A program made the translations under genes and the position numbers. DNA of 64,000 nt, taken from NCBI GenBank assembly GCA_965213705.1, contig OZ243913.1:3040001-3104000 (forward strand), written 5' to 3'. Below are positions 31,493-53,600 of this stretch, piece by piece. The first letter of the stretch is position 1. Every line of letters begins with the position of its first letter. The stretch is from Trueperaceae bacterium. Its GTDB lineage: Bacteria; Deinococcota; Deinococci; Deinococcales; Trueperaceae. Below the pieces are notes generated by a model, which was not told the DNA's origin, ran no database searches, and saw only the letters and a program-made list of their open reading frames with translations.

Positions 31493-33361
31493 CTACTGAA
31501 TTTTCACCCTGAACTGCACGTAGCCCGATTCACCGAACGACATCTTGTCCTTGTTGCAAACCCCGCCGGGAGTGGTGCCGTTGCCGCCGGTCAGCGTGAC
31601 GCGCAACGTGGTGCGGCCGGAGTTGGGCGCGGTACTGGCCCCGTAGTTCGGGCTGGCAACGTCTAAGTCGATAGGTTGGGCGGCGGCACCCGGACAGGTG
31701 AACTCCAGCTCGCCCGCGCCGTACTGGTTCGTTTGCAACGTCGTGTAAAAAGGCAACGCGTCCGTCAAGGAAATGTCGTAGCTGCTTCCTCCTTGGCTCA
31801 AGTAGGTGACGCGGTACTCGAGGACGTCCCCCGGCAAGCCGGTGTTGTTGGTCCTGAACACGCCGCCGCGCGTGACGTTGCGGACCTCCTTGACGAGTTC
31901 CAAAGCCGCGCGGGGGGTGTCGTCGCTGGCAACGACCGCCGTCGCCGAGGCGTAACTCGCCAGACCGTACACGTGGGTGTCGACGAAGGCCGAGTCGCCG
32001 AACGAAGAGCTGGTAAAGTTGCCCCAGGTGTGCCTGAACGCGCCCGACGCTTGCCCGACGACCGACACCTGCCCCAAAGGGCGCGTGCTGCCGCCGTTCC
32101 CCGCTTTGTTGGGGTTGAAACCGGTTAAGTCGTCCCAGTAGACCGGCACACCGTAGAGGCTTTTGTCGGTGTTGACGCCGTAAATGGTCAAGCCGTTCTG
32201 AGTACCGCCGCCGCTCGTCTCGGCGTCGCTGGCGACGAAGTGATACTCCCCGATGCGGCCCTGGACTTGGGCATGGTAAACGCCGTTCGGAAGTACAGCG
32301 TTGCGGTTGTCACGCCCGTTCCAAACGACCGAATTAACGCCCGCCGCCATCGTGCCGAACAGGTACACGTCGTCCACTTCGCTGCCGTCCACGACGACGC
32401 TGTTGCCGAACACCCCGTCCTGGTTGGCGTCGATGGTGATGAGGTAACGGCCCGGTACGTCGCTCGTAAACTTAAAGACCCCCGAGTCCTGCACCCCCGC
32501 CGAGCTGCCGGGCGAAATGGTCTGGTCGACGCCGCTGTTGTCGGTAAAGGTGATGTCGGAAAGTTGGGGTGCCGAGGTGGGCGGCGGCAGCACGTTCACG
32601 GGATAACCCAAGTAAATCGGATACTTTTCGCTCACGCTGTTGCCCGCCTGCGGCACGCTGTAGATAACGTTGGCGGCGTCCACCCCCTTGTCGTTCGCGA
32701 CAAGGTCGTAGCCGTAGCCTGCAAAGTTGTTGAGGTCGAGCTGCCACACGAAGTTGGTGTTGGGCCGCCCGCCCGGCACGAGGATGTAGTAGTCGGCGTC
32801 GGTCGACTTGTTTTCTGTAAACGCGCCCGCACTGTAAGCCCAGTTGTAAGCAAACACGCGCCCGGCGGCGAGTTTCGGGTTCGGCTTCGTCGCCGTGTTC
32901 GGCGTCACCGTGATGTCGAAGCGGCTGAGAAGGTCTGAGGTGGCGTTGTATAGTCGCAACTGGTAAGTACCGGCAGGCAGACCCGAGGTACTGGGCGACC
33001 ACTTGAAGGCGGTGGGCGGGTCGAGTTCGGTCGGATAGGTCGTCGCCGAAAAGCCGCAGAAACCGGTCTGGGTTTCTTTGAGGGCGTTGGGCGACTTGTA
33101 GTGCAACGTTGCGCCGTTCGCACTCCTGACCTCGAAGTAGACGTTGTCGTTCGAGCTGCTGCCGCGCCCGCACAAAGACACGTTCACGACCTCGGTGGCC
33201 GAGGTGAAAACGACGTATTGAGGGTGGGTAGCGGTCGCGAAGTTGGCCGCCGAAGAGTCGTACTCGTAAAGAGCTTGGGTTAGGCCGACCTGCCATGACC
33301 CTTCGGAAAAAGTGGTAGCACCAAACATAAAGGCCAGCAGACCCAAGCAAACCCGTACCAT
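31493..33361 (-). CDS. Secreted protein with C-terminal truncated DUF11 domain (putative tip adhesin)
   Basis: Hydrophobic N-terminus, beta-rich N-domain, DANQDG loop, WNGRD...LPNGVY (FlgD-like), then LELVKEV...PGDVLEYRV...LTDALP...VQFRVKIQ-stop. Confidence 0.75.
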   Translation of the reverse strand: MVRVCLGLLAFMFGATTFSEGSWQVGLTQALYEYDSSAANFATATHPQYVVFTSATEVVNVSLCGRGSSSNDNVYFEVRSANGATLHYKSPNALKETQTGFCGFSATTYPTELDPPTAFKWSPSTSGLPAGTYQLRLYNATSDLLSRFDITVTPNTATKPNPKLAAGRVFAYNWAYSAGAFTENKSTDADYYILVPGGRPNTNFVWQLDLNNFAGYGYDLVANDKGVDAANVIYSVPQAGNSVSEKYPIYLGYPVNVLPPPTSAPQLSDITFTDNSGVDQTISPGSSAGVQDSGVFKFTSDVPGRYLITIDANQDGVFGNSVVVDGSEVDDVYLFGTMAAGVNSVVWNGRDNRNAVLPNGVYHAQVQGRIGEYHFVASDAETSGGGTQNGLTIYGVNTDKSLYGVPVYWDDLTGFNPNKAGNGGSTRPLGQVSVVGQASGAFRHTWGNFTSSSFGDSAFVDTHVYGLASYASATAVVASDDTPRAALELVKEVRNVTRGGVFRTNNTGLPGDVLEYRVTYLSQGGSSYDISLTDALPFYTTLQTNQYGAGELEFTCPGAAAQPIDLDVASPNYGASTAPNSGRTTLRVTLTGGNGTTPGGVCNKDKMSFGESGYVQFRVKIQ

Positions 33362-36300
33362 TTAGTTGCCACCCCCCGTCGGCGCGGCGCGGCCGCAGGT
33401 CCACTGCTCGTCGAACACCGCGTCGAGCCGCACGAACACGCCGCTGCCGCCGTAAACCGCGCCGTAGTCGCGGTCCAGACCGCCCAGGTTGTAACCCGCC
33501 ACGCCGTAAACGCCGCAACCGAGGCGCTGTGAGACTTCCAGACCGACGCCGAAAGCGCGCTCTTGGACAGTCCAGTCGTTGAAAAGCCGGGCTTGAACCA
33601 GCACGTTGCCGCCCTGCCAAGCGTAAAAGCCGCCACCCACGTTGACGAGGTCTAAGTAGTTCTCCCCGACCAGGTAGCGGTAGGCGTAGCCGAAGCGCAG
33701 GTCGTAGCGCTCGCCGAGCGTCCAAGTCGCTCGAGAGTCGCCCCACACGCTGTCGCCCTGTCCTATACTGCCCCGTCCTGTGCCGCCTCCCCGGGACAGC
33801 GCACCGAACTGGGCTTCGTTGTTCGTGAGCAGGGCGAGGCGTTTGCCCCGGTAAGCGCCCGCGACGCCGAAACTCGCGCCCGAGCCCTGGGCGCTGTCGT
33901 ACAGGTAAGTGCCGGTCACGCTGCCGTAGAGACGGTCCGACAGGGCAAAGGTGCTGCCGCCGACAACGACGTGCTTCGAGGCGGCCGGGTTCCAGGAGAC
34001 TTCATAACGGAGCGCCGCGTCCACTGTGTCGGTGTCGTAGTTCGCGCCGGCGCGCACCGCGACCTGCGTGTCGGTTTGCGCGCCGCCCTGTACGCCGTCC
34101 GCGCTGGACAAGCCGCGGCGGTACTCCGCGCCGAACTGCAGGCTCAGGGTTTCGCTCAGCGGCAACGTCGTGTCCAGACCGAGACGCACCCGCCCGGCCG
34201 CCGCGCTCACCCCGCCCGGAAGTTCGTACTGCGCGGTCACGGTGGTGCTGCCGCCGGACAAGTTGCCGAGTGCGCGCGACGGGTCCGCGCAGTTCAGGGT
34301 GCGGCACAGACTCGCCCGGACGCGGTCGTGTTGCAGGGTCGCCTCGAGCCCCAGCAACAACGCGTTACTGTCGCCCCACACCAGTTCGTCGCTGAGGGTG
34401 AGGCTCAAAAACTCGAGCAGGGGAAAAGCGGCGCTGAACTGGGTAACGCTGCGCGCGTCCGCGCCCAGGCCCTGGCGGTGAACGACGCCCAAGCGGCTCC
34501 CCTGCCAACCGAACAGGTCATAAAGGTTGCCGCCGACCAGTGGACGCAGCAAACCGCCTTCTAAATTCGCCCCGAACTGCAGGTCGAAGCCCTCACCCCG
34601 GTACAGCCCGAGCGCGTCGGCGCTCAAGTCGGTGTTGCCCGCCGTGGCCGACAAACTGGTGCGCGCCGCCACGCTGAAAGCCGAGGAAAACGCGTAGCTT
34701 GCGGCGGCCTCCAACGTGTGGCCTGCCGCTCCCAGCGCGGTCGGCGAGCGGTAACCTGCCGACACGAAGCGCCAACCGGCTTCGGCGTTGAGCGCGTCGG
34801 CGCTGTAGAGCAACCGGGTCGTGACGGCCACGCCGCCGGAACTTTCGCTGACGCCGTACGCGACTTCGGCGTCGGCGCGGACACCGCTACCCTCGTAACT
34901 CGCCCCGCCCGCCACGACGCGGTTGTAGCTGAGGTCGCTGCTCGTTTCCTGCGCCACGCCGAGCCGAAACTTGGCGCCGCCCAGCCCGACCTCGGCCTGC
35001 GCGCCCGCTTGCAAGTAGCGCGCCGCGTTGCCTGCGGCCAAGGTGTAGCTGAGCCGCAAATAGTAGACGTCGCCGCGGGCGTCTACGAGGGGTACGGGCT
35101 TGAAAAGCTCGAGCAGGCCCGTCTCTTCGTTTATCCGGAAGTCCTTCAGGGGCACCAGGACGCGGGTCACCGGGTCGAGGTCGTCCTCGGGCACGCTCAC
35201 GCCGAGGCCGTCTTTTTTGACAACCTCGACGCGCAGCGTGTTGGGCTCAATGGGCGCGTCCGGCACGAAGCGCAGACTTGTCCCGTCGCTTTTCAGGTCG
35301 ACGACGCGCATGTCGGTGACACCGTTGAAGGCCGCGTAAGCGCGCACGCCGAAGTCCACGCCCTCGTGCGCGCCCACATAGACGCCGCTCAGGCCGGTGT
35401 AGAACCGGCCCAGGTCGAGAAAGCCGCTCAGCGGCGTCGTAAAGTCGCCGTACTGAAGGTAACTCTCGTCGCGTTCCAACCGTGCGTAGACCCCTTGGCG
35501 GCTCTCGGCCCCGTAGCTGGCCGCGCCGCTGCTGCCGGGCACGGGAAAAGCTTGATAAGGATTGCTGTCGGCGGGTCCCAAATCGGCAAACGGGTAGCGC
35601 GCCGCCAGGGTCAACAAATAGTCGCCGAGAACGCGGCCTCGAGCGAAAAAGCTGCCGCCCACGCCGAACTCAAACCCCTCACCGTAAGCCGCCCCGACGC
35701 TGCCCGTCCCGCTCACAAGCCAGGGGCGCAAGTTGCTCGTCACCTTTACCGTCTGGCTTTGAAACGTTTCACCCACCAAGACCCTGAGGACGACCTCGGT
35801 GGGTTCGGCGAGGGGCGCGAGCTTTAAGCGCGCGTGGCCGGCCTTCGAGCGAAGCTGAAACCCGACCTCCTCGCTGGCGTCTGCCGAAGCTAGGCCCGCA
35901 CCCTCGACCTCCAGGGTGACGAACCCGTCCAGCGTCGCGTTGCCCCAGGCGTCGGTCACGACGAGGTCCAGCGCGAGCGGCGTGGCCGAGTCGGCGACGA
36001 GCGGCGTCAGGGGCGTGAGGGTAAACCCGGCGGCAGGGCCGGAAAAATAGACGGTGACGCTGTCGCTGACAACCTCGCCGTCCAGGGCGCTCTCGAGCCG
36101 CACCTCGTTCGGGCCGGGCTGCAAGGGCACGCCGACGAAGTCGTAGGTTTGACGGTTCAGGTTGGGGTCGAAGACGCGCTGACCGACGGTGTCAGCGGCG
36201 ACGGGTTCGCCGTTCACCGTAAGGGTCACCTCGCTGTTCAAGGGCGTGTCCGTGCTCACCGTGACGCGGTCGCGCTCGCGCAGCACCAACCCGGGGGCCG

Positions 36301-38383
36301 GCGCCAGGATGACCGCCCCGACACGCTCGCGGGCCACCATGTTCGTCGCCGGACCGCTCTCACTCGCTTCGGCACCATATTCAACACCGAGCGGTTCGGC
36401 GCGGGTGTACAGCTCGAGCGCGTCTTCGCTCCCCAGCAACACTTCGGGCTCGGGCGTAAGACCTACCAGGCTGCTGTGGTCTTTGCCGAGACCCAAAAGA
36501 CCCTCGTGCAACACGGTAAAGCTCACCTGGCCGACCGCCGCCCCCGGCAGTTCGAACACGAGCGCGTCGTCCACGCCCTGCGGGTCGGCTGCCACTCGGC
36601 CGTTGACCGTCGCGCTGCCCGCGACGTAGCTGGCCCCCGCCGGCAACCGCTCGACTAACACCAGGCCGTCCAGCACCGGCAGGTCGTAGGCGGCGACGTC
36701 GACCACCACGGTCGTCGTCTGGTGGGGTTGGGGCAGTTCGGGCAGGGTTTCGACTTTGAACTGCAACAAGCCACTCGAGCCCGCCGGGACACCCTCAAAA
36801 CCTACTGAGTCGCAGTAGGGCGTGACCTCGAGCAAGCCCGTCCCCTCGACCACGCCCCGCACGGTGAGGTTGGCGGTGGCGCTGGCGGCTGCGGGGAGGG
36901 TCAGCGTCCGGGGCGCGTCGACCACCTCCGAACGGCCGCTCCCCTGTACGCCCAAACCGACGGTGACAGGTACGTGGAGCGGGTTGGTGACGGTAAAGTG
37001 AAGCGTCGTTTCCTCGCCTACATAAACCGGGCCGGCTGGGGGCGTCACCTTGGTCGTAAAGTCGGCGCGCATCACGGTGTCCTCGGCGACTCGCTCGAGT
37101 CCCGTTCCGTCCAACACCCCGCGCAAGGTCACCAGGGGCGGCGCGGCGGGCGTGAGGGTGACGGTATAAGAAACCGCGGTCGTCGCCCCCGGCTCCAAAC
37201 TTCCTTGCCACACCAGGTCGTTGCCCGAAACTGTAGCGCCCTCTTGCGCGACGAGTTGCAAGCCCTCGGGCAGCGCTTCGCGCAGCAGGTAGTCCCCGGC
37301 CGCCGCGCCGCCGTTCGTGACGCTCAAGGTGACCGTCAGGGTCTGACAAGGCGCCAGCAGTTCAGAACTCAGGGCACGTGTGAACCCGAGTTTGGGTTGC
37401 GGCGAGACCGAGACCTCAACCTGTGGCAGCTCGACGGGGCGTTTGGGCGTCACGGCGGCGCTTGGAACTGGCAGCGGCAGCGGGCGTTTGGGCGTCACCG
37501 TCACTTCCAGCGTTGGTAACTCGACGGGTTTGAGCGGCGCGACGAGTTGCGCGGCGGGCGTCAGGGTGACGCGCTGCGCCGCGCCGCCGCAGCGCACGAC
37601 GAAGCGCACCGCGTTCGTTTTTTGATACCGCCCCGTGGGCAGCGCGAGTTGCACCGTGTACAGGCCGGGCAAGCGGGGCAGCGCCTGGCTGACCGAAGCG
37701 CGGTCGCCGGACACCGCGAGTTGCAAGGTCACGGGTTGCAGGGTTACGGGTTGCAGGGTTACAGGTTGAAGGGTGCCCGAGGGCAGGCGCAGGCGGGCCG
37801 ACAGTTCGCCACGTCCGTCGCCGTCGTACAGCTCGAGCGCGCAAGCCCGGTGGCCTGCAATGTCGAAACTGAACGCGTCCGTCCAGGCTTCGCTGCTCAC
37901 GTTCACGGTAACGCTTTCGGCTTGCAAAGTCACGTCCGCCAGTTCGGTCTCGAGCTTGAGCAAGTAGACGTTTTTGCCGTTGCCGGCGACCTCGCTCCGC
38001 AAGGTGTAGCTTCCGGCCGCGGCCGGGCCCTCGAAAAAGGTCAGCCACCTAGAAGCGCCCAGACTGAAGCGCTCGCTCCTCAGCGTCGCGACGGTGGCAG
38101 ACCCGCCCCTGGACAGGGTAAAAGCGGCCTCGAGCGGGGCGGCGTCATAATGTTCGTCGCCGGGCTCGTCGAGGTCGATGTTGGGAGAGTAGACCGAGAG
38201 CTTGACCCAGGAGCTTTGCGGTAGGTCGAACACGACTTCGTCGCCGTCGGGTGCCCAGCGTAAAACCGTGCCCGCCGTCACCAGCGGCAGGTGAGTTCCG
38301 GCAGCCTGCGGCGCGTTTTGCGCCCACGCAAACGTGCCGAACAAGCTCAGCAGAAACAGGTACTTCAAGACAAGGTGCTTCAT
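33362..38383 (-). CDS. Large (about 1673 aa) exported protein with Ig/DUF11-like domains and a C-terminal beta-barrel-like region
   Basis: Start MKHLVLK (ATG 38383, ATGA overlap) plus signal peptide; LREALPEG and VERLPAGASYVAGS DUF11-like units; about 780 aa of alternating Gly/Tyr amphipathic strands. Confidence 0.8.
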   Translation of the reverse strand: MKHLVLKYLFLLSLFGTFAWAQNAPQAAGTHLPLVTAGTVLRWAPDGDEVVFDLPQSSWVKLSVYSPNIDLDEPGDEHYDAAPLEAAFTLSRGGSATVATLRSERFSLGASRWLTFFEGPAAAGSYTLRSEVAGNGKNVYLLKLETELADVTLQAESVTVNVSSEAWTDAFSFDIAGHRACALELYDGDGRGELSARLRLPSGTLQPVTLQPVTLQPVTLQLAVSGDRASVSQALPRLPGLYTVQLALPTGRYQKTNAVRFVVRCGGAAQRVTLTPAAQLVAPLKPVELPTLEVTVTPKRPLPLPVPSAAVTPKRPVELPQVEVSVSPQPKLGFTRALSSELLAPCQTLTVTLSVTNGGAAAGDYLLREALPEGLQLVAQEGATVSGNDLVWQGSLEPGATTAVSYTVTLTPAAPPLVTLRGVLDGTGLERVAEDTVMRADFTTKVTPPAGPVYVGEETTLHFTVTNPLHVPVTVGLGVQGSGRSEVVDAPRTLTLPAAASATANLTVRGVVEGTGLLEVTPYCDSVGFEGVPAGSSGLLQFKVETLPELPQPHQTTTVVVDVAAYDLPVLDGLVLVERLPAGASYVAGSATVNGRVAADPQGVDDALVFELPGAAVGQVSFTVLHEGLLGLGKDHSSLVGLTPEPEVLLGSEDALELYTRAEPLGVEYGAEASESGPATNMVARERVGAVILAPAPGLVLRERDRVTVSTDTPLNSEVTLTVNGEPVAADTVGQRVFDPNLNRQTYDFVGVPLQPGPNEVRLESALDGEVVSDSVTVYFSGPAAGFTLTPLTPLVADSATPLALDLVVTDAWGNATLDGFVTLEVEGAGLASADASEEVGFQLRSKAGHARLKLAPLAEPTEVVLRVLVGETFQSQTVKVTSNLRPWLVSGTGSVGAAYGEGFEFGVGGSFFARGRVLGDYLLTLAARYPFADLGPADSNPYQAFPVPGSSGAASYGAESRQGVYARLERDESYLQYGDFTTPLSGFLDLGRFYTGLSGVYVGAHEGVDFGVRAYAAFNGVTDMRVVDLKSDGTSLRFVPDAPIEPNTLRVEVVKKDGLGVSVPEDDLDPVTRVLVPLKDFRINEETGLLELFKPVPLVDARGDVYYLRLSYTLAAGNAARYLQAGAQAEVGLGGAKFRLGVAQETSSDLSYNRVVAGGASYEGSGVRADAEVAYGVSESSGGVAVTTRLLYSADALNAEAGWRFVSAGYRSPTALGAAGHTLEAAASYAFSSAFSVAARTSLSATAGNTDLSADALGLYRGEGFDLQFGANLEGGLLRPLVGGNLYDLFGWQGSRLGVVHRQGLGADARSVTQFSAAFPLLEFLSLTLSDELVWGDSNALLLGLEATLQHDRVRASLCRTLNCADPSRALGNLSGGSTTVTAQYELPGGVSAAAGRVRLGLDTTLPLSETLSLQFGAEYRRGLSSADGVQGGAQTDTQVAVRAGANYDTDTVDAALRYEVSWNPAASKHVVVGGSTFALSDRLYGSVTGTYLYDSAQGSGASFGVAGAYRGKRLALLTNNEAQFGALSRGGGTGRGSIGQGDSVWGDSRATWTLGERYDLRFGYAYRYLVGENYLDLVNVGGGFYAWQGGNVLVQARLFNDWTVQERAFGVGLEVSQRLGCGVYGVAGYNLGGLDRDYGAVYGGSGVFVRLDAVFDEQWTCGRAAPTGGGN

Positions 38384-39684
38384 CGGCGCACGTCCCAACT
38401 TAGTGTGGGCGCGGTGAGCAGCTTTTCGGGCGCGCCTGCAAACGCGACCCGGTAGCTGAGGGTGCGCGCGTAGCCCGCCGGAACGTCGCCGAGGGAGAGT
38501 TCGAGCCCCGCACCCGCCGGGGGTGTGCCGTCCGCGAACACCGGAGCCTCTAGCAAAATCGCTCCGGCGACAAGCGTCTCGCGCACGACCACGCCGCGCA
38601 GGGGTGCGCTCGAGCCGACCTGCAAGGTGACTAAAAATCCACCGGGTACGGGCTCGAGGCTTTTTTCGACCGCGAGCGGCCCCATCGCCACGTTCAACCT
38701 CTGCCGCACCGACAGCTCCGTCCGGGGCGGTTTGAAAGGAATGTCTCGCCGCGTGACGACGCCCGGCAGCAAGCGCACGCGCCACAGCCCCGCCTTGTCC
38801 TCGCCGACGCTCACCCCGAACAGCCGCGCGGGCGTGGTGCTGGTGTCGACCCGTAAGGCGGCCAGCGACGGCTCTACGTTTTGAAAGGTGTAACGCCCGA
38901 GTTCGTCGGTCACGGTTTCGCTGCCGTCGGACAGGTAAAGCCGCAAGTTGGGCACCGGGACGTCGTCAGCATCGTACAGGCCGTTCGCGTCCCGGTCGAC
39001 AAAGGCCGTACCGAGCAGCGCCGCGCGCTGCTCGAACAAACCCAGCTCGACGGGCGTCGTTGCCGTGTCCGCCGCGCCCGCCAGCACCAGGCCCGCACCG
39101 TCTTCGGCCAGGGCCTCGGCCCGGTTGACGAGGTCGGTCGCAAACAGGGCGGTAGGCAGCACGACGGCCTGAAAGGTGACCGTCACGACGTCGTTAGGAG
39201 CCAGGTCTACAAGCGTCCAGCGCAAGGTCGAACCGTCGACCTCGGCTTCCGCAGCGACGGTTGCGCCGTCCGGGCGCAGCACCCGGGCGCTGCCCGGAAC
39301 GTAGCGCAGCGCTGCGGGCAAGGTGTCGACGAGTTGTAACTTGCCGATGGACACGCTCTCGGGGTCGTTGGTGACCTGTAACTCGTAAGTCAGGGTGTCA
39401 CCGACGTTGACACGGCTCGGCACGGCGGTTTTTTGCAGGTCGATGAGGACGGGTTGAAAAGTCGTTACGACCTCGGGCGACAGGTCTTCGCGCTCGTCGC
39501 CGTTCCGCAGGTAGGTCGCGCGCGCCTGGTTGACGATTTTGTTGCCCGTCGGCTCAGCCGTTTGGTTGAAACCGGGCAGTGCGGGCGGGCGGGTCTCCGC
39601 GTCCTGGGCCGCCGCAAGGGTCAAGCCGGCCGACAGCAGGACGGGTAGCAGCGCGAGCAAGCTGCGGGAGACGACGGTGTACAT
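38380..39684 (-). CDS. Secreted DUF11 + SdrD-B-like protein (putative base/adaptor)
   Basis: Signal peptide; IVNQARATY donor-like segment; full DUF11 (LQKT...DTLP...LVNRA); GTAFVDRDANG...TDELGRYTF. Confidence 0.8.
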   Translation of the reverse strand: MYTVVSRSLLALLPVLLSAGLTLAAAQDAETRPPALPGFNQTAEPTGNKIVNQARATYLRNGDEREDLSPEVVTTFQPVLIDLQKTAVPSRVNVGDTLTYELQVTNDPESVSIGKLQLVDTLPAALRYVPGSARVLRPDGATVAAEAEVDGSTLRWTLVDLAPNDVVTVTFQAVVLPTALFATDLVNRAEALAEDGAGLVLAGAADTATTPVELGLFEQRAALLGTAFVDRDANGLYDADDVPVPNLRLYLSDGSETVTDELGRYTFQNVEPSLAALRVDTSTTPARLFGVSVGEDKAGLWRVRLLPGVVTRRDIPFKPPRTELSVRQRLNVAMGPLAVEKSLEPVPGGFLVTLQVGSSAPLRGVVVRETLVAGAILLEAPVFADGTPPAGAGLELSLGDVPAGYARTLSYRVAFAGAPEKLLTAPTLSWDVRR

Positions 39685-39784
39685 GCTGTTACCTTTCTCC
39701 TTCCGGGGCAAACGAATCCGGCAAACAAAGCCTCAAATAGGTGGGTTGAGCGGGTAGTCCAATAGGGGTCACAAGCAAGATAGC

Positions 39785-39821: not shown

Positions 39822-42605
39822 TTATTGCACTCGAACGACGAACACGAGGGTGATGGACTGGCCGGGCGTGAGCACGTCGGCGGTGGTGATGGTTCCGTCT
39901 TTGGTGGCCGGTGCCGTGTCCACACCGACGTAGATGCTCTGCCCGACGGTCAAGCTGGGCGCTGTAGAGGTCCAGGTCGAACCGTTCACCGAGTACAGCA
40001 CGGTACCGCCGGTCGCAGTCGTGGTCGCCGCGGCGGAGGTAAAGGTCGTGTAGCTCGGCAGCGGGTCGGACACCTTGACGTTGGTCAGGTTGCCCGAGCC
40101 GATGTTGGTGGCGACAACGGTGTACTCCAAATAGTCGCCGGGTTTGGCGGTCGCGCCGGAGGCGTCGAGCACTGCGCTAGCAGGACTGCACGTCGCGCTC
40201 GAGCAGGTCCGCACCGTCTTGACGAGCCTGAGTTCGCCCGACCTTACGAGGGTCCTGTCTTGCACGCTGGCCGTGGCCGTCGTGCCGCCCGGATAGGTTG
40301 CCGTCGCGGTCACGGTGACCGTCTCCTCAGCGCCGTCCGCTGCGCTGCCGGGCACGATGACGCGGACGTAAACCGTCCGGGACGCGCCCGCCGCAACGGT
40401 CACGCCGCTCAGCGACGAACTGAAGGTGTTGCCGTCAAGGGAGTACTGGTAGGTGAAAGCCTTGCCCGTCTGTTCCGGGATAGCCACGGTCGCGCTGGCG
40501 TTGCCGTTGTTGGTCAGGGTGTGGGTGTAGGTCACGACGCCGTTGGGCGAGGTGGTGGCGGTCTGGTTGGTGACAAAGGTGAGGGCGGTAACCGTGGTGA
40601 CCGTGACCGTCGTGGTGACGGAGTCAGTTCCGGTGCCGACCGGGTCGGTGGTGCTGGTAGCGGTAAAGGTGAGAGGGTTGTCGCCGGGTACAGCGCTGGC
40701 CGGAACGGTGACCTGGACGACGTAACAGGCTTTGGCACCGACGGCGAGCTGAGGCGTTTGGCTTACCGTGGGGCCGTTCGGGGCACCGGTGGCGCAGTCC
40801 GCTTGCACGAACACCGCGCTCCAACCCGCGGGCAGGTTCGGCACCGTGAGGTTGTAGCTGTCGGCCTGTTTGCCGTCGTTCAACACTTCGACCGGATAAG
40901 AAAGCGTCGTGCCGGGGGTGGTGCTCTGGTTGTCCGGGTTGTCGTTGGCATCGTTACGCGGGGATTCGCCACTAAACCCGCGCGTGGCGAGGTCGACGCT
41001 GTAGCCCTTGACGGGCGTGGGGACAACGTCTTTGGTGGCGTCGGTCGCCCCGCTCGAGGTCGAGGTGGCGGTCAGGGTGACGGTGGTACCCGCCGTGGCG
41101 CCGACCGGAACGGCGACCTTGACGACCACGTCTTGCGAAGCGCCCGGCGCGAGCGGCCCCAAGGTGCCGGACAGCGGGGTGACGCCGTCGGCCGCGTAAA
41201 GCGTCACGCTGTAGCCGTTGGCGCTGCTCGTGGTGGACAAGGTATAAGAACTGGTCGCGTTGCCGTTGTTGAGCACCGTGTGTCTGAAGGCCACGGTGTC
41301 GCCGGTATAGACGGGAACGGTGCTGGGGGCGGTAGCCGTCAGGGTTTGGGTGTCGGTATAGGGTGCGGCGGCGGTGTAACCGCCCGACAGGGTGACGGTC
41401 CAGGTTTTGCCCGTTGCCGGGTCGGTGTAAGTCGCGTTGCCCGACAGGGTGGGGTCGGCCGCTTTACCCGCAGGGCCGACGGCCACCCTGGCGTTTGCGT
41501 TGACCGTCACGCTGGTGGTGTTGGTGGGGGTCGTTTTGTTGGTGGCGGAGGTGGTGCCGGTAGCATAGGTGACGTTGGCGGTGTTGGTCACGGTCGTGTT
41601 GGCCGCCGCACCGGCAGCCACCGTGACGCTGAAGGTCATCGAGTAGTTCGTGCCTTGCGTAAAGAAAGCGCTTTTGGTGGGCGAGGTGGGATCGCGAATC
41701 ACGATACCGACGGCGTTGACGGTGCCCGTGGTGGGTACCGTGGTCGACCAAGTGGTGCCGTTGTTGGTCGAGTAAATAGGCTCAACCGCACCCTTGCCGG
41801 AGGTGCCGGACAGGCTGCCTGCAGTGAAGGTCTGGTTGGTGTTCAACACGTCGGTGACGATGATACCGACGCCCGTGAGACCGTAGCTCGAGAGGTCGAC
41901 GCCGTAAGCCGCCGAGCCGCCGTTGTTCGAACCCGCAACGGTGTAAGTAACGGTACCGCCCGCGGCGACCGTGCTCGTCGGGTTGGCCGTTTTGGTGGCG
42001 GTCAGGTTGCCCGCCGTGTTGACGACGGCCCTGGCCCAGTTGTTGGTGTCGGTGACGGCCGTGTTGCCGGCCGAGGTGCCGGTGATGTTTAGAAGCGCGT
42101 TTTGGTTGTTGGTGGCGGTGCCGGGCAAGGTACCCGCGACAATCAAACAGACTGAGGCATCTGCATTGAGGGTAACGCTTGTTACAACCGGGTCGCCCGC
42201 GACGCTGCCGTCACAACCCGCGTCCCGGTAGATGGTCACGCTGCTCAGGTCGAAATTGTCGGTCGTCGGCTGCACGTTTGCCAGGTTGAAGGTATCACTG
42301 CCGTTGCCGGTGTTGGTCAAAATATAGTTGAAATACACAGGTGCACCCGGCAGCGCGCTTTTGGTTTGGCCCGGCGCGGCTTCGGTGCCGTCGGGCGTGA
42401 TGGTGAGGCTGTAGACTTGCTGCACGATGGTAGTGACCGGGTTAGAGAACGTCGTCTTGGGCGTGCCCCCCGAGACGTAAGTCGCCGAGGCGGTGTTGGT
42501 TATCGGCGTGTCCTTGGGCGTGCCGGCGGCGAAAGCCAAACCGAACACGCTCAAAAAGAGGCCGAACAACGCGGTTCGGCTCGAGCGGTTGAAAGACGGG
42601 GTCAA
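39822..42605 (-). CDS. Thr-rich secreted multi-Ig DUF11 protein, about 927 aa (putative major filament subunit)
   Basis: GGAGG then TTG at 42605 (alternative ATG 42626); signal peptide ending AFA; AGTP..ITNTASATY; four Ig repeats with N-x-G-N-like motifs; one complete DUF11; C-terminal truncated DUF11 ending LVFVVRVQ. Confidence 0.85.
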   Translation of the reverse strand: MTPSFNRSSRTALFGLFLSVFGLAFAAGTPKDTPITNTASATYVSGGTPKTTFSNPVTTIVQQVYSLTITPDGTEAAPGQTKSALPGAPVYFNYILTNTGNGSDTFNLANVQPTTDNFDLSSVTIYRDAGCDGSVAGDPVVTSVTLNADASVCLIVAGTLPGTATNNQNALLNITGTSAGNTAVTDTNNWARAVVNTAGNLTATKTANPTSTVAAGGTVTYTVAGSNNGGSAAYGVDLSSYGLTGVGIIVTDVLNTNQTFTAGSLSGTSGKGAVEPIYSTNNGTTWSTTVPTTGTVNAVGIVIRDPTSPTKSAFFTQGTNYSMTFSVTVAAGAAANTTVTNTANVTYATGTTSATNKTTPTNTTSVTVNANARVAVGPAGKAADPTLSGNATYTDPATGKTWTVTLSGGYTAAAPYTDTQTLTATAPSTVPVYTGDTVAFRHTVLNNGNATSSYTLSTTSSANGYSVTLYAADGVTPLSGTLGPLAPGASQDVVVKVAVPVGATAGTTVTLTATSTSSGATDATKDVVPTPVKGYSVDLATRGFSGESPRNDANDNPDNQSTTPGTTLSYPVEVLNDGKQADSYNLTVPNLPAGWSAVFVQADCATGAPNGPTVSQTPQLAVGAKACYVVQVTVPASAVPGDNPLTFTATSTTDPVGTGTDSVTTTVTVTTVTALTFVTNQTATTSPNGVVTYTHTLTNNGNASATVAIPEQTGKAFTYQYSLDGNTFSSSLSGVTVAAGASRTVYVRVIVPGSAADGAEETVTVTATATYPGGTTATASVQDRTLVRSGELRLVKTVRTCSSATCSPASAVLDASGATAKPGDYLEYTVVATNIGSGNLTNVKVSDPLPSYTTFTSAAATTTATGGTVLYSVNGSTWTSTAPSLTVGQSIYVGVDTAPATKDGTITTADVLTPGQSITLVFVVRVQ

Positions 42606-42628
42606 AGTGTTACCTCCAAAAGACATCG

Positions 42629-43216
42629 TTAAAGAACCTCGACGCGGTAGACGAGGTTGTGTTGGGCGCCGGGCGGCAGCGCTTCTTGCAGGGTCCAGCG
42701 AACGCCTGTGTACTGGTCCGGGTTGGCGACGACTCGCTTCTGTTCGCCCGCTTCGTTGGTGACGGTCATCATGACGGGCGCGGCCATAAAGACGGGCGAG
42801 CCGTCGGCGGCAAGCTCGGCCGAAAACTCGGTCGTGACCAGGTCGCCGCCGCTCGCCGTGTCGGCCAAGTAGGCGGTGGTCGCAGGCACCGGCCCCGCCA
42901 CCACGACGGCGCCGGCCGGTAAGGTTTCGGCGCCGTCGTTGCGGACCAGAACCCGGTATTCGACCACTTGGCCGGGCCTGGCCTCGGCGGCGGCGGTGAA
43001 CGTCTCGGTCACGGTGCCGTCGTCCTGGGTAACGGTCGTTACTATGAACGCTTCCAACGTCACGGTGACCGGCTCGGCTTGGGCGGCGGCCCAGCCCGTC
43101 GCGGCCCAAGCCACTACCAGGGCGAACAAAAAGACCCACGTCGAACGCCCGACCCTGGAACTACTGACCCTGGAACCATCGACCCTAGAAATATCGACCC
43201 TGTGACTCTCGACCAT
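42629..43216 (-). CDS. Small secreted single-domain DUF11-like protein
   Basis: GAGGAGG RBS; signal peptide; ARPGQVVEYRVLVRN...GPVP...VRWTL...LVYRVEVL-stop. Confidence 0.8.
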   Translation of the reverse strand: MVESHRVDISRVDGSRVSSSRVGRSTWVFLFALVVAWAATGWAAAQAEPVTVTLEAFIVTTVTQDDGTVTETFTAAAEARPGQVVEYRVLVRNDGAETLPAGAVVVAGPVPATTAYLADTASGGDLVTTEFSAELAADGSPVFMAAPVMMTVTNEAGEQKRVVANPDQYTGVRWTLQEALPPGAQHNLVYRVEVL

Positions 43217-43220: not shown

Positions 43221-43397
43221 TGACCCTCCTCGAGGAATTACCCCGCACCTAGAAGCGCTCGGCCTTAGTCAGTGGGGGTTCTCGAACACGTCATCATGGC
43301 GTTTGGGGCTGCCAAAGCCTGTTAAATTTTCTGTTTTTTGGTGAAGCTGTCGTGTTTTTTACAAGTAGTTTGTGCGCGTGGCTTTTACCTTTACAGC

Positions 43398-43430
43398 AGC
43401 ACGTCGCTAGCACGTCGCTAGCACGTCGCT
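43398..43430. repeat. Perfect 11-bp tandem repeat x3
   Basis: AGCACGTCGCT x3. Confidence 0.9.
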
Positions 43431-47424: not shown

Positions 47425-47477
47425 GACGCGGTTCGCGACTGCTTTCTCATGGATTGGATGTTATCTTAACCTTGCGT

Positions 47478-47605
47478 GGGCAGGCGTAGCGCCGACAGGT
47501 GCCACGCCTGCCCTGCCGTTGTAGATAACCTTTGTAGACAACCGTTGTGGACAGCCGTTGTAAGTCGTCGTTGTAGACAGTTGCTGTCAAGAGCCGCTGT
47601 AGAAA
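47478..47605. repeat. Hairpin followed by seven 13-bp tandem units upstream of the TamB-like gene
   Basis: GGGCAGGCGT...ACGCCTGCCC (47478-47513); units near consensus gccgttgtagaca (47515-47605). Confidence 0.8.
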
Positions 47606-47622
47606 GCCGCACAGACCCCCTT

Positions 47623-50600
47623 ATGGACGTTCAAACACCCGCGCCCACCGACCATCCTGGGCCGCCGCGTTTTCTAAAGTGGAGCCTGCCCGTCCTCGTC
47701 GCGGGTTTGCTGCTGGCGTTGTACTTTGCGCCGCAACTGCCCGCGGTGCGAGGGTGGCTGTTGTCGCAAGTTGACAGCGCGGTCCCGGCGGGCTACAGCC
47801 TCGACTACAGCAGCAGCGGCGGCAACCTGTGGAGCGGTATCGAGTTCGGCGGGGCGAACGTGGACGGTCCCGGTTTGGCGGTCGAGGCCGACACGCTCAG
47901 CCTGGGCTACTCTTTGCCCGCGCTGCTCACGGGCAGACTGCCCGTGTCGGTGACGGCCGAAGGTGTCCGCGGCAGGGTCGCGCTCAAAGACCTCACTGTA
48001 GGAGGTTCCGGCAGAGGTTCCAACGCCGCGCCCGTCCGACCCGTGTTGCGCGACCTGAGCCTCAAAGACGTCAACCTCCGGCTTGTCGACGTGCCCTACA
48101 CCCTGCCCGACCTGAACGTGACAAACCTGCAAGCACGGCCCGTAGGCGACGCCTTTCGCGCCGAGGCCACCCTGAAAACGGCCGAGGGCGAGGCCGTCGT
48201 CAACGGCACGCTGGCCCTGAACCCGCTCCGCTTTACCGCCGACGTGCCCCGCCTGGACGCGCGCGTGGCGCGGCAGTGGTGGCGGGGCATTACCGGCGGC
48301 ACCCTGGCCGGCACGGTGAGCTACGCGGACGGCCGCCTGCGCGCCGACGCCAGCCTTCGAGACGGCAGTCTGGACTTTTTGGGCGAGACCGCGTCGGGTA
48401 TTCAGGGCGACGTCGCTTATGAGAACGCCACCGTCCGCGCCGACCTGACCGGCGCCGCCCTGGGCGGCGAGGTGACGGCCGCCGGCAGCGTGGACGTCGC
48501 GGCGCTGCGCTGGTCAGCCGAGGCGGTCGGCACCGTGAACTTGCGCGACGCCGTCCTGTGGCTCGCCGCCGGGCGCGTGCCGGTCGACGTGTCCGACGTA
48601 GGGCTGAGCGGCAGCGCTCAAACCCGGCTGAGCGCTGAGGGCTGGCGCGACTTCACGCTCGACGGCGCGGCCACGGGCGCGGGCGACGTGGCGGGCTACG
48701 CGCTCGAGGATTTACAGGTCGACTACAGTTTTGACAGTGATACAGGCGCCCGCGTCGACGCCACGGCAAACTTGGCCGGGGGCGACGTCACGGCCAGCCT
48801 CACGCCGCAAGCGGACGGCTTCTCGTTCGACTTCGGCGGTGCAGGCGTGCAGCTGTCACCCGCGGTCAGGGCCGACCTAGAAGTCGCCCTGACAAGGTCG
48901 CCGGGCGGCCTCGCCGGCACCACCGAGGCCGCGCTGACGGGCACCCTCCTCGACCAAGCCCTGAACGTGACCTTGGGCGGCGTGTTCAAGCCGGACGTCG
49001 TCCAGGCGAGTGTCGACGGAACCGCGCTCGGCGGGCCGCTCACGGGCGCGGGCTCGCTCCAGGGCGGCGCTGTGGCGGCGCGGCTCGAGCTGCCGGGGGC
49101 GGTCCTGCCCGGCCTGAAACGTCCGGTGGGTCTTGAACTCAGCGCGACCGGCCCCGCCGACGCCCTCCCCCTCACTTTCACCCTCACGACGCCGGAGCCG
49201 ACCGGGCTGGTGCTCGGGCCGCTCACCGTTCCCAAAGACATCGGGGGGCAGGCCAGCGCCACGCTGCGCGGGACGCGCCTCGAGGACCTCAGCGGCCGCT
49301 TCGGCACCTTGACCGTGGCGGGCGACCTGGGCCCGGACGCTTCCGGCAACTTGAGCTACAGCTTGGCGAACACGCCCCTAAGCGGCGTCGTACAGGGTGA
49401 GGCGAGCGTCGACGGCGTGTTGACGCTCGCCGACAGGGTGCTCGAAAGCAAGGCGACGGTGACAAGTTCGGACCTGCGGCTAGCCAACCTGACCTTGCCG
49501 CCGCTCGCCGCCGCCGAGCTTGAAGTCAGGCGTGCCGACACCTGGACGGCGACGCTCACAGCGCCGGACGAAACCTTCAAGCTCGGTTACGGCGGCGGTG
49601 ATGACGGCGGTGACGACGGTGACGCTTTGCGCGTGACCACGGCGGACTATCCGGTCACGGTCGCCGGGCAAGCTCTCACCCTCACGGGAACCGGTAAGCT
49701 GGCGGCGGCGGACCCCTTGGGCTCGCTCGACCTCGCGCTGAACACGCAAACCCCGTTCGGCGACGTGACGCTGACGGGCGGGGCGGCGGCGCTCCGATAC
49801 ACCCTCGAGACCCCGACCCTCGGCCCCGGTTCCCAACTGACGGGCACGGCAAACCTGCTCGAGCGCACCACGAGCTTGAGCGGGCGGCTCGGCGCTTTGG
49901 ACGTTGCCGGGACGGGTCGTTGGGACGACAGCTTGGACGGGACGCTCACCGTCGAGGGCGGCGGCGAAAAACTCGAGCTGCGCGTTCGCGGCCAACCGGC
50001 CCAGCCCAGTTTGGCGCTGACCGGGCGACTGCCGCTGAACCTCGTCGGCGACCTCTTCGGCGTGACAGCGAGCGGCACCGTGAACGCCGACCTGGTGCGC
50101 ACCGGCAGCCTCTATCAAGAAGGTCGTTATCGAGACGGCCGTTATCAAGGGAGCGCCGAGGTGGTGGGCACCCTTGCCTCGGTGCCTGTCGGGTTGCGTT
50201 TTTTAGGCGAGGGCGACACCCTCGGAGTGACGGGCGACGTGACGCCGTTTGCCGTGCCGCTCAGTCTCAGCGGTCGACTGCTTCCCACCATTGAGCTGAA
50301 CGGGGCGAGCGAACTGGGCCGTGTCGCCCTGGTTGAAACCGGCTTGACGGGCGCGGGTACCGTACCCGGCGGGACGTTTGCAGGTTTTACGCTCGAGCCG
50401 CAACCGTGGACGCTGGCAGGCGACTTGGCCGCAGGCACGGCGACGCTGTCGCTGCCCGAAACCGCTTCGAGCGTGAGGGTCGACCGGGGCGCGGCGGGCT
50501 GGCGGGCCACCCTCGACCTCGCCCAAACCCTTGCGCGGGGCGACAGCGCGGTGAGCGTCGAGACGAGCGGCACCTTGGCCGCCGGGTCTGCGGTGCGGGG

Positions 50601-53600
50601 AGAAGTCCGGCTGCAGACGCCCGCGGGCGACGCGACGCTGCCGTTGACGGGGTCTCTGGAGGGGCTCGAGCTGGGCGGCACCCTGCCCGCGCCGGTCGCC
50701 GCAAGCTTGCTCGGGTCACCCGTGGCTGTAACCGGCGACCTGGAGGTTGCGGCTCGGGCGCAGGTTGGCGGCGGGTTGACCTACGCCGCCACAGCCGCCT
50801 GGCAAACGCCCCGCAGCACGCTGACGGCGCAGCTTGACGGCGCCGGCACAAACTTCAATATCACGGCGGCGGGCGGCGGCCTCGACCTCCGTTACGGCCC
50901 CGACGGGTTGAGCGTGCAGGCCGACGGTTTTCAGCTCGAGCCGTTTCTGGGCGCGGCGGGCGTGCAGGGCAGTCTGAACGGCTCTTTGCGGCGCACGCTC
51001 ACGTTGAACGAAACCGGGGCGGGTTGGGACGGGGTGCTCACCTTGGACACGCGTGCGCCCGTTGCGCTCCAAGCAGTGCTCAGCGGCGCGGGTGAACGGC
51101 TCGAGCTGTCCACCGACTACGACGCGGACGCCCTGAACGCCCGAGCCGTAGGTACGCTCCTGCCCACGCTCGACCTCGCGCTGAGCGGCGCGTTCCGCGA
51201 CTTGGCGACGCTCCAGGGGCGGGTTGGCGGCACCCTCACCCGGCCCGCCGTGGCCGCCACACTGACGACGAAACCGCTGGACGTTCAGGGGGGCCTCGAG
51301 CTGAGCGTTCCCGCTCAAACCCTGACGCTCACGGCCGACTTCGGAAACGGCTTGAACGCGCCCGGTTTGAACGCGACCGGCCTAAACGCGACGCTGCAGG
51401 GTGACGCGCTCGAGCTTGAACTTTCCGAAGGCGGTTTGCAAGGCGCGCTCAGGCTGCCCTTCACCTTGGCGGGCGCAGAGGAAGTGTTGAGCGCGGAAGT
51501 CGGCGGCACCCTCAGTCGTCCGAGCTTGGACGGCACCTTGGTGGGCAACGTCGCCAGCGGCCCGGTCAGGGTCGCCGACGGCCGCTTGACGACGACCCTG
51601 AACCTCAGGCCTTCACCCTTACTGGGCGGCCTGCCGCTCGACGCGCCCGCGCTCACGGTGGCGTTCACGGGGGCGTTCGAGGGCGCGCGTGACCTGGCTT
51701 GGCAGGCGCAGGTCGAAGGTTCGGCCCAGTTCCAGGGTCTGCCGCTGGCGCTGGGCGGCACGCTTTCGGGTGAGGGCGCAAGCTACCGCGGAACCGTGAG
51801 CGCGACCCTCGCCGGGGAGAGCGTGCCGCTCACCGTGGCTGGGCAAGGTAGCGCGGTGCAGGTGCAAGCGAACCTCGAGGCTTTCAGCTTGGCGAGCTTG
51901 GCACCCGCCCTGCCCGTTCCCGTGACCGGGACGCTCGGCGGCACCCTCGACCTCGACACGCGCGCCCCACAACTCCTGTCGTTCGACCTCACAGCTTCGG
52001 GAGCGGTGCGGGGCCGCGGGTTCGACCTTACGGCCGAACGTACGGAAGGTGAACTGAGCGTCACAGGCGACGTTGCGGGCGCACCCTTCACGCTCGGTGA
52101 CGAAACGGGCGCTTACTCGTTCACCCTCGGCTCGAGTACGGACCTCTCGAGTTTGGCGGGACGGCTCGAGCTTGCCCCCGCGCTCCGTTTAGACGTCTCA
52201 GGACAGTATCTTGCGCAACCCCTCACGGCGACGGCGGCTTACGCGACTTCGGACGCAAGCTCTGGTACGGTGACCCCCGACACGGCGACCCCTGACACAG
52301 CAACCTGGGCGGCGGCGGTCGGCGACGCGACCGTTTCGGGCGACGCCAGGCGGGTCGGCGGCGTTTGGACGTTGCAAAGCGTCGTGAACAGTCCGGCCGA
52401 CGGCGTTTTGCCCTTCCAGGGGCGAGCCGAGGTCGCGGCGCGGGTCGAGGGCGGCAACGTCACCTTGGACACGCTCACGGCGAACACGGCGCTCGGCGGG
52501 CGCGCGGTCGGGCTCGAGCTGTCCGGCCCCGCCTGGCCCGCGCCCGAGCTGACGGGCGGGCTGGAGGTCGCCGGTTTCGGGCGCGGCGACCTCACCTTGA
52601 GCGGCGCCGCGCCCGGTTACGACGTCGCCCTGAACTACGACGGGCTCGTGTTAGCCGCCGCACTCACTCCGGGGTTGGCCGTTGAGACCGTCACGCTCGG
52701 CGGTGCGGGCACCTTGCCCGTCGGCGGGGGCGTCCCCCTGACCTCCGACTTGACCTGGACGGCGGCGGGCTTCAGCGGCAAGGCCGGCGCCGACCTCTCG
52801 TTCGGCAACCTCAGCGCCAACCTGACCGCCGTCGGCACCGGCCCGCTCGGGGTGGCGGGGCGCGCGACGTACCGGGGCCGGGGCGAAAGTCAGGAGGTGG
52901 CGCGGCTCGAGCTGGCCCTTTCCGCCAACCCCTTCGCCCGGCCCGGTCTGAACGGCCACCTCGCCTTGCAGGGTGACGTTGGACGGTTTCTACCCGCTTA
53001 CCGAACCCTCACCGCGACGCCGACGACCCTCACTGGACGGCTCGACGTTTCGGGCGAGGTGACGCGGCCGCGCCTCAGCGGCCCCGTGACCCTGCAGGGC
53101 GCGCTCGCTGCGGCGGGAGCGTTCGTTTGGGACGGGGCTGTCGGGCGGCTCGAGCTGTCCGGGGACGGTCTGGACGCGACCGCGGCGCTCCGCGCGAGCG
53201 GCTGGAGCGTCGCGGCGCGGGCCGACGGCCTCGACCTCACACCTCTCCTGCCCCAACTCGACGCACCCCGGCTCGGCGCGACGGTCACCGGCTCCGGCAG
53301 CTGGGGCGAGCCCGTCCTGCAAGTCGACGGCCTCACCCTGCAAACGCCGAACGGCTCGCTTGCCGGCGACTTGACCTACGACGGGGCGTTGAGCGGGCGG
53401 CTCGAGACCGACCTCGCCCTCGGCGACCTGAACCTCGGCCCGGCGCTCCGGGGACGCCTGACGGGCGACCTCTTGCTAACCGGCGATTCGGGCGGCTCCG
53501 ACCTCACCGGGACGTTGCAAGCGGTCTCGCTCGGGCTTGACGAGCAACCCGCCGTGCTTGACGGGCAAAGCGCCGGGCTTGACGGCACTTTGGTGGTGAG

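Follow-up and report, generated by a model that had tools for sequence, protein, structure and literature searches.

The stretch of DNA analysed here (64,000 nucleotides (nt) of contig OZ243913.1 from a Trueperaceae bacterium, assembly GCA_965213705.1, positions 3,040,001 to 3,104,000 of the forward strand, in the following called the window) carries on its reverse strand a fibre operon of five genes, G1 to G5. The first of them raises the question why such an operon should open with a small protein that resembles the docking domain of the fibre subunits and is without the residues by which that domain would react. The answer favoured here, with a confidence that falls a little short of even, is that G1 clasps the N-terminal two-strand plug of the subunits non-covalently and serves as a periplasmic holder, which would prevent premature locking before the outer-membrane protein. 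The parts of this answer differ in strength. That G1 is an acceptor-type domain unable to lock is well supported; that it binds donor strands non-covalently is at best moderately probable; and a role of G1 as a periplasmic chaperone is plausible but unproven. On sequence, comparative and model evidence, the observation is confirmed and its interpretation partly supported, as a variation on the known assembly of fibres by donor strands and on CLIPPER domains.

The open reading frame (ORF) of G1 proved to be real, with 195 amino acids (aa) and with every motif named in an earlier note, which had been made from the letters of the window and had called the protein a catalytically dead acceptor domain and candidate donor-strand chaperone. 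By sequence, membership of G1 in the DUF11/CLIPPER family is borderline: against PF01345 it scored 22.5 bits, under the cut-off of 24.6 and covering profile positions 4-64 of 114, and against TIGR01451 25.3 bits, above the cut-off of 24. An hhalign comparison of the G1 family with 13 acceptor domains of fibre subunits gave a probability of 97.9% (E 3.9e-13, 105 columns), with an alignment that reaches the last residue of both profiles. These results bear out the description of G1 as a single truncated DUF11-like domain, and on this alignment the domain is judged to be a homologue of the acceptor domains in G2 and G5, with the same C-terminal truncation point. The motif PGQVVEYRV at residues 81-89 has its counterparts in PGDYLEYTV of G2 and PGDVLEYRV of G5, and the C-terminal strand LVYRVEVL at 188-195 in the ends LVFVVRVQ (G2) and VQFRVKIQ (G5). 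TLEAF at 53-57 stands where G2 and G5 have LVK, and AGPVP at 107-111 where SDPLP is found in G2, TDALP in G5 and VDTLP in G3. The mature protein would begin with EPVTVTLEAF, that is, with the first strand directly, so the translation agrees with the earlier reading of both replacements and of the missing donor segment.

The meaning of these replacements depends on the chemistry of intact DUF11 domains. In the crystal structure 9IFR of such a domain, renamed CLIPPER, an intramolecular isopeptide bond links Lys to Asn with the help of a catalytic Asp (Lys715, Asp748 and Asn806), and the same report also mentions some DUF11 domains without the triad (PMC12617251). G1 is without the Lys-Asp-Asn triad, with Ala56 and Gly108 in place of Lys and Asp and a chain that stops before the Asn-bearing strand. 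It ends at LVYRVEVL, two strands early, whereas the complete DUF11 domain of G3 runs on for two further strands (LVNRAEAL...). For the CnaA-like Ig beta-sandwich fold, superposition of the mature domain of G1 on 9IFR by VIA-align gave a Z of 7.8 with a root-mean-square deviation (rmsd) of 2.2 over 88 residues, values of Z under 8 being common.

The earlier note had proposed that homologues be aligned for a systematic loss of Lys and Asp, and such a loss was found. Among 27 G1-like proteins (14 operon heads, seven stand-alone copies and six of unknown context), neither column holds its residue in a single case (Lys 0/27, Asp 0/27); the Asp column holds Gly in the clade of the window's family and Leu, Ile or Val elsewhere. 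A profile search of 1.84 billion protein representatives brought up 2,965 with E<=0.001, of which 1,212 reach E<=1e-10. From the best 150 matches, the 128 with a length of 120-235 aa were kept (21 longer and one shorter were removed), and in these Lys was present in 0/128 and Asp in 5/128, while 94 of the 128 end at exactly the last column of G1. The pattern in these alignments indicates that the losses in the G1 family are systematic and not due to chance. The expression "catalytically dead acceptor" stood as far as the residues are concerned, which are lost; the wording itself is an interpretation that takes the fibre domains as a split version of the intramolecular DUF11/CLIPPER triad.

Further searches around the fold gave little. 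Foldseek of G1 against the PDB found no match at E<=0.001, some of the weak matches being carbohydrate-binding modules, and PDB sequence searches with the G1 family profile and with a Thermus-like homologue returned nothing meaningful. TTHA1873 of Thermus thermophilus has a similar fold (Z 8.1, rmsd 2.9, 103 residues) with no detectable sequence kinship and was dropped as a lead. A search for longer homologues found no fused forms of G1 at E<=0.001, which is weak evidence. Among the 21 longer proteins within the best 150 matches, there are several with a second G1-like stretch, and also giant DUF11 adhesins in which only the core is matched. As a separate observation, two or three stretches match the G1 profile in P0019, P0025, P0058 and P0078 (285-331 aa); the non-reactive acceptor domain may have been duplicated in tandem there, or the starts may be mis-called.

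The genes behind G1 show what such a domain could have to bind. The C-terminal domains of G2 and G5 keep Lys and Asp and stop two strands early (...VFVVRVQ and ...FRVKIQ, each followed by the stop), and G2 and G3 start, after the signal peptide, with exactly the two missing strands. In G2 these read DTPITNTASATYV...SNPVTTIVQQV, and the donor of G3 is of the same type (IVNQARATY ... VVTTFQPV). In an alignment of 12 G2 homologues, A35, T38, I44, N46 and A48 of the donor region are invariant (12/12) and Asp856 of the acceptor domain is nearly so; the acceptor Lys was present in 11 of 13 acceptor cuts of 140 residues, and the remaining two show it in the full-length alignment. A search of the genome of the window with the donor motif gave four matches, of which only those in G2 and G3 are N-terminal, the others being internal to G2 and in an unrelated frame. 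From these domain maps it can be proposed that an intermolecular Lys-Asn bond would join the fibre subunits. G4 is presumed to be the outer-membrane component, with a putative barrel judged from its sequence; family scans, with a query starting four residues later, gave weak DUF11-type matches only. In the AlphaFold2 (AF2) model of full-length G2, with a mean predicted local distance difference test score (pLDDT) of 81.2 and a predicted template modelling score (pTM) of 0.44, the donor strands reached a pLDDT of 84-90 (residues 41-80), so they appear packed against something in the monomer model.

The order of a small protein, a shaft subunit with donor and acceptor, a donor-bearing base, a giant protein and an acceptor-only tip is conserved in four families of the order. 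A homologue search with G1 returned 17 sequences at E<=0.001, and matches were found in 32 of 41 related genomes. Of the 18 operons whose upstream side could be read, from four families, 15 have a G1-like gene immediately before the gene of the donor-bearing shaft subunit, one locus that starts at a contig end having been omitted. The genuine G2-like protein is present in 14 of the 41 genomes (18 were listed, four of which match only at the small gene itself), and 13 of these 14 also have a G1-like gene; the exception is an assembly of 460 contigs in which the G2-like match lies 334 nt from a contig end.

The three operons without G1 all belong to one genus and retain G2 and G5 as well as a donor region of the G3 type and a G4-type protein, and each of their genomes also has two operons with a G1-like gene. 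In this genus (g25; loci L035, L036, L037, L040 and L041), three genomes carry three fibre operons each, one of them without a G1-like gene, and one stand-alone G1-like gene each, which adjoins a phosphoglucosamine-mutase-like gene in both of the readable loci. As the numbers match one to one, this copy might act in trans for the operon that has no G1. In a genome from a genus of family f3 (G026), the locus L020 (G026:C1:2096000-2110500) has a G1-like gene with no G2-like shaft gene behind it; instead, about 900 nt downstream, there is a frame of 1416 aa with a G3-type tail (...DPNASWRYLR); no G2-like protein was found in this genome with G2 of the window as query.

Binding of the plug was modelled with mature G1 (residues 47-195) and the G2 hairpin (residues 36-76), each with a custom alignment, in three runs and three controls. 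The interface score (ipSAE) was 0.85, 0.86 and 0.85 for the pair and 0.00, 0.00 and 0.01 for the controls, with 99-100 contacts, a partner pLDDT of 85 and at least 98% contact agreement between runs. In calibration, the mark was reached by 116 of 157 solved pairs and by two of 215 mismatched pairs, a yardstick that is only rough where custom alignments are used. The first donor strand runs in the model along strand 103-109 of G1, which contains Gly108, with donor residues 48-50 touching 105-108, and the second contacts residues 52-54 and 78-79. Strand 48-56, with Leu54 and Ala56, also packs against the hairpin, as do those residues of strand 85-91 that face inward. Donor Asn46 contacts Leu54 and Tyr87, next to Ala56. 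The hairpin is thus predicted to complete the DUF11 sandwich, with Asn46 placed where a Lys would reach it, which is the expected geometry. As for the non-covalent donor binding that had been suggested earlier, the model does place the hairpin in G1, and it is on this model that the suggestion depends. Of the three outcomes that the earlier note had named as refuting its idea, two were covered, retention of Lys/Asp in homologues and failure to take the donor, and neither the alignments nor the model speaks for them.

A course of events can be proposed for a periplasmic holder of this kind. The N-terminus of G2, exported by Sec, would emerge first and be captured by G1; such early capture would be sensible because the N-terminal donor leaves the Sec channel ahead of the rest of G2. 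Since G1 has no Lys, the complex would remain non-covalent. At G4, the reactive acceptor of the preceding subunit would take over the hairpin, and the Lys-Asn bond formed there would make the step irreversible.

Several points weigh against the holder. The complex model may just complete the DUF11 fold as it is known from intact domains, and because of such possible fold memory the prediction shows likeness and compatibility and not binding in the cell. G1 would leave unprotected the open acceptor domains of the subunits, which are what the classical chaperones of pili shield. If two strands restore a hydrophobic core by complementation, release could also be too slow for a transient holder, which would favour a permanent cap. 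Finally, a G1-like gene occurs in 23 of 24 other genera of the family and the genuine G2-like protein in only 5 of the 24, counted after removal of four genomes whose sole match is the small gene itself. In five genomes with stand-alone copies only, no donor-like N-terminus was found (best E 0.048, for a frame of 38 aa), short donors being hard to detect, and three of the five (G024, G021 and G011) are without any other DUF11 match. The fold can thus evidently exist and be kept under selection without such donors.

For the stand-alone copies, either the hairpin partner is yet to be found or the fold is self-sufficient, and because of the latter possibility the claim of donor binding is not rated any higher than stated at the outset. 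The seven copies examined adjoin a pair of ATP-binding cassette (ABC) transporter genes or a PIG-L-type gene. One of these paralogues is in the genome of the window itself (G000:C1:3358449-3358916; L013:12438-12950, reverse strand), where both a PIG-L-type gene and an ABC-transporter pair are its neighbours. The seven form one clade (support 88/95) in a maximum-likelihood tree of 29 rows, nested in a family-specific clade (99/98) together with the operon heads of three genomes (G000, G001 and G004). Given this nesting among operon heads, the stand-alone clade is a derived duplicate and the operon-linked state is the older one.

The stand-alone copies are the natural starting point for the view that G1 has a donor-independent function, as a self-sufficient secreted beta-sandwich that binds, for example, envelope, matrix or glycan; an acceptor domain would be no more than its ancestor, and its place in the operon would reflect co-regulation and not strand binding. 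This would fit their conservation at seven loci, the two loci of another family beside the phosphoglucosamine-mutase-like gene and the presence of such copies in genomes without detectable donors. The AF2 monomer is likewise confident without a partner, with a pLDDT of 92-98 in each block of ten residues from residue 51, and the conserved and outward-facing charged residues of the family (Glu86, Arg88, Arg173 and Arg191) could form another binding surface; the carbohydrate-binding modules among the fold matches point the same way, weakly. However, the residues of the predicted interface are hydrophobic, face inward and would be buried in an intact DUF11 domain, and they are still conserved, also in the stand-alone copies. 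The derived and not ancestral position of the stand-alone clade, the tight operon linkage kept across four families and the 94 of 128 representatives that end exactly at the acceptor truncation point speak against it as well, and a donor-independent function is considered improbable.

The concern over slow release leads to a second alternative, in which G1 is a non-covalent distal cap or initiator that stays permanently on the first shaft hairpin, leaves through G4 and sits at the tip instead of G5 or primes secretion. The same predicted interface would serve it, G1 is acceptor-only as is the tip protein G5, and great stability would be expected of a sandwich core rebuilt by two strands. The operon, however, already encodes an acceptor-only tip with reactive Lys and Asp, so the finished fibre would have no free donor: in a fibre of the form G5-(G2)n-G3, as the domain maps would have it, every donor is paired with a reactive acceptor, so that no plug would be left for a permanent G1. 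Gene position bears on the same choice. The ATG of G2 lies 2 nt past the G1 stop (TAA CG ATG), with GAGG within the 3' end of G1, and a protein needed once per fibre would not be expected as the first gene, so close to the shaft gene. This position suggests that G1 is made in amounts similar to the shaft and not once per fibre; the tip protein G5, unlike G1, is encoded last. The three operons without G1 in cis, with their full set of other components, and the stand-alone copies in genomes without fibres also argue against a cap, which is regarded as unlikely. Plug valence and gene position would rather favour the transient holder.

A third possibility is that G1 regulates length or termination by preferentially holding the donor of G3, which would delay the terminating or anchoring step and set the length of the fibre. 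The donor of G3, being of the same type, would make a possible client, but G1 adjoins G2 and not G3 in all 15 linked operons, and this explanation is judged highly improbable.

If the periplasmic holder is correct, a decoy socket would govern, in the periplasm, a polymerisation that is covalent and needs no enzyme, with a polarity opposite to that of the chaperones of chaperone-usher pili, and nature would offer in G1 a reversible partner for a natural pair of the tag/catcher kind. The stand-alone copies indicate that the biology of the family is wider than the operon suggests. A broader proposal, put forward as rather doubtful, is that G1 stands for an undescribed and large family, with 1,212 clusters at 50% identity (E<=1e-10), of "reverse" pilus chaperones, each derived from a self-locking socket by loss of its reactivity and sequestering the plugs of covalent split-domain fibre subunits, and that its stand-alone descendants were re-used as beta-hairpin receptors in bacteria without fibres.

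Table. Coordinates within the window of G1, its parts and the other genes of the fibre operon.
Feature	Position	Strand	Evidence or remark
G1 coding sequence, small acceptor-only protein, 195 aa	42629..43216	-	ORF list and sequence; stop codon 42629-42631
G1 start codon ATG	43214-43216	-	sequence reading
Shine-Dalgarno-like GGAGGG	43224..43229	-	7 nt upstream of G1 ATG
G1 signal-peptide-like N-terminus, residues 1-47	43076..43216	-	Arg-rich n-region, hydrophobic TWVFLFALVVAWAATGWAAA, AQA before Glu48
15-nt tandem repeat in G1 n-region	43150..43214	-	4.3 copies, 76% matches; Tandem Repeats Finder, score 74
G1 mature domain, residues 48-195	42632..43075	-	DUF11/CLIPPER-like beta-sandwich ending before the Asn-bearing strand
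G1 Ala56 codon, column of the reactive acceptor Lys	43049..43051	-	alignments; inside predicted interface 48-56
G1 Gly108 codon, column of the catalytic Asp	42893..42895	-	alignments; predicted contact with donor residues 48-49
G2, shaft-type subunit	39822..42626	-	C-terminal DUF11; alignment of 12 homologues
G2 N-terminal donor hairpin	42405..42527	-	residues 36-76 (frame from 42632), 34-74 (ATG at 42626)
G2 invariant Asn46 codon	42495-42497	-	numbered from 42632
G2 C-terminal acceptor domain, ends VVRVQ	39825..40238	-	Lys805 40218-40220, Asp856 40065-40067 (numbered from 42632)
G3, donor-bearing protein (KIVNQARATY, Asn61)	38380..39711	-	complete DUF11 (Lys94, Asp129, Asn196) and SdrD_B-like domain
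G4, 1673 aa	33362..38383	-	ATG overlaps G3 stop (ATGA)
G5, tip-type protein without donor, ends FRVKIQ	31493..33361	-	C-terminal acceptor domain: Lys491 31889-31891, Asp534 31760-31762

The next ATG, GTG or TTG within the frame of G1 does not come before Leu30, which makes the long form the probable product. Residues 1-47 resemble a Sec signal peptide with a putative cleavage site at their end, and the AF2 model has a helix at residues 27-39 with low pLDDT; mature G1 is a single domain of 148 residues. The repeat in the n-region encodes pentapeptides of the form xRVxx (HRVDI SRVDG SRVSS SRVGR) and is also found in the 97%-identical protein P0001, while it is missing from a homologue of the same genus (frame start MVKGSTLVFLF). 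A perfect tandem repeat of 11 nt x 3 (AGCACGTCGCT) is located at 43398-43430, in the spacer that separates the promoter region of G1 from the stop of a GFO/IDH/MocA oxidoreductase gene upstream.

Downstream, a gap of about 110 nt separates G2 and G3, the stop of G3 and the start of G4 overlap at 38380-38383 (ATGA), and G5 begins right after the stop of G4 (33361-33364); G3 to G5 look translationally coupled. A terminator-like hairpin of seven pairs followed by CTCTTTTTGA lies at 42561-42580 on the reverse strand, shortly past G1 and among the first 70 nt that code for G2. Intrinsic terminators across the operon numbered 11 against 13.1 expected, so that an attenuator is unsupported and the hairpin may mean nothing, the count for the operon not being above chance. 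The opposite strand carries, some genes away on the upstream side of the operon, a gene for a giant protein: a frame of 3483 aa (47476-57927, forward strand) with a C-terminal TamB domain (PF04357, E 4.2e-25), which makes it TamB-like.

Compared with CLIPPER/DUF11 domains, G1 belongs at the borderline to the same sequence family and appears to have a similar Ig-like sandwich, and the positions of Lys and Asp map one to one. In contrast to them, G1 is a stand-alone single domain and not a repeat of a stalk, another protein is predicted to supply the strands that complete its fold, and it is without Lys and Asp and stops before the Asn-bearing strand. In the literature covered, to which subscription journals did not belong, no description was found of a G1-type protein or a split-DUF11 fibre, and neither DUF11 nor CLIPPER is named in the available part of a review of bacterial surfaces from 2026.

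Among natural fibres, a similar principle is described for BsaA of Clostridium perfringens, an "exchange and lock" fibre with donor-strand insertion followed by an intermolecular isopeptide bond, whose operon also encodes a non-polymerising paralogue, BsaB, according to the accessible part of the preprint (bioRxiv 10.1101/2024.11.04.621531). BsaA differs in its TasA-like fold, Gram-positive host and SipW-dependent export, and that part describes no unreactive acceptor-only helper. Against TIGR04090, the BsaA/TasA family, G1 scored 15.7 bits with a cut-off of 60, and no stretch passes alone. Archaeal threads, too, are reported to be joined by insertion of a donor strand and a subsequent intermolecular isopeptide lock. 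CapP of Bacillus cereus is presented, in the accessible part of its report, as a chaperone-like regulator of TasA/CalY filaments that prevents uncontrolled aggregation (PMC13082335). As there described, it resembles the proposed G1 in that it is accessory to a sortase-independent fibre, whose polymerisation it modulates. It differs in its unrelated sequence context and its own oligomerising domains, not being a disabled copy of a docking domain of the subunit. None of BsaA, the archaeal threads and CapP is such a disabled copy.

The closest functional comparison is offered by the chaperones of the PapD/FimC type, small secreted Ig-type proteins that are encoded together with subunits of incomplete fold and block premature strand complementation until the site at the outer membrane is reached. 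PapD has two domains and donates a strand to the groove of the subunit. The likeness is one of working only: G1 too is small, presumably secreted and encoded with fibre subunits of incomplete fold, and none of the PapD-like families (PF00345/PF02753) is among its Pfam matches at E<=0.01. Unlike PapD, it consists of one domain, would accept strands of the subunit, in reversed polarity, and would leave the acceptor groove unprotected. An engineered parallel is found in non-reactive variants of SpyCatcher, in which the larger half without its reactive residue still docks SpyTag reversibly and non-covalently. SpyCatcher is man-made, derives from a CnaB-type domain and has a single strand as partner, whereas G1 would be a natural, CnaA-like counterpart with a partner of two strands.

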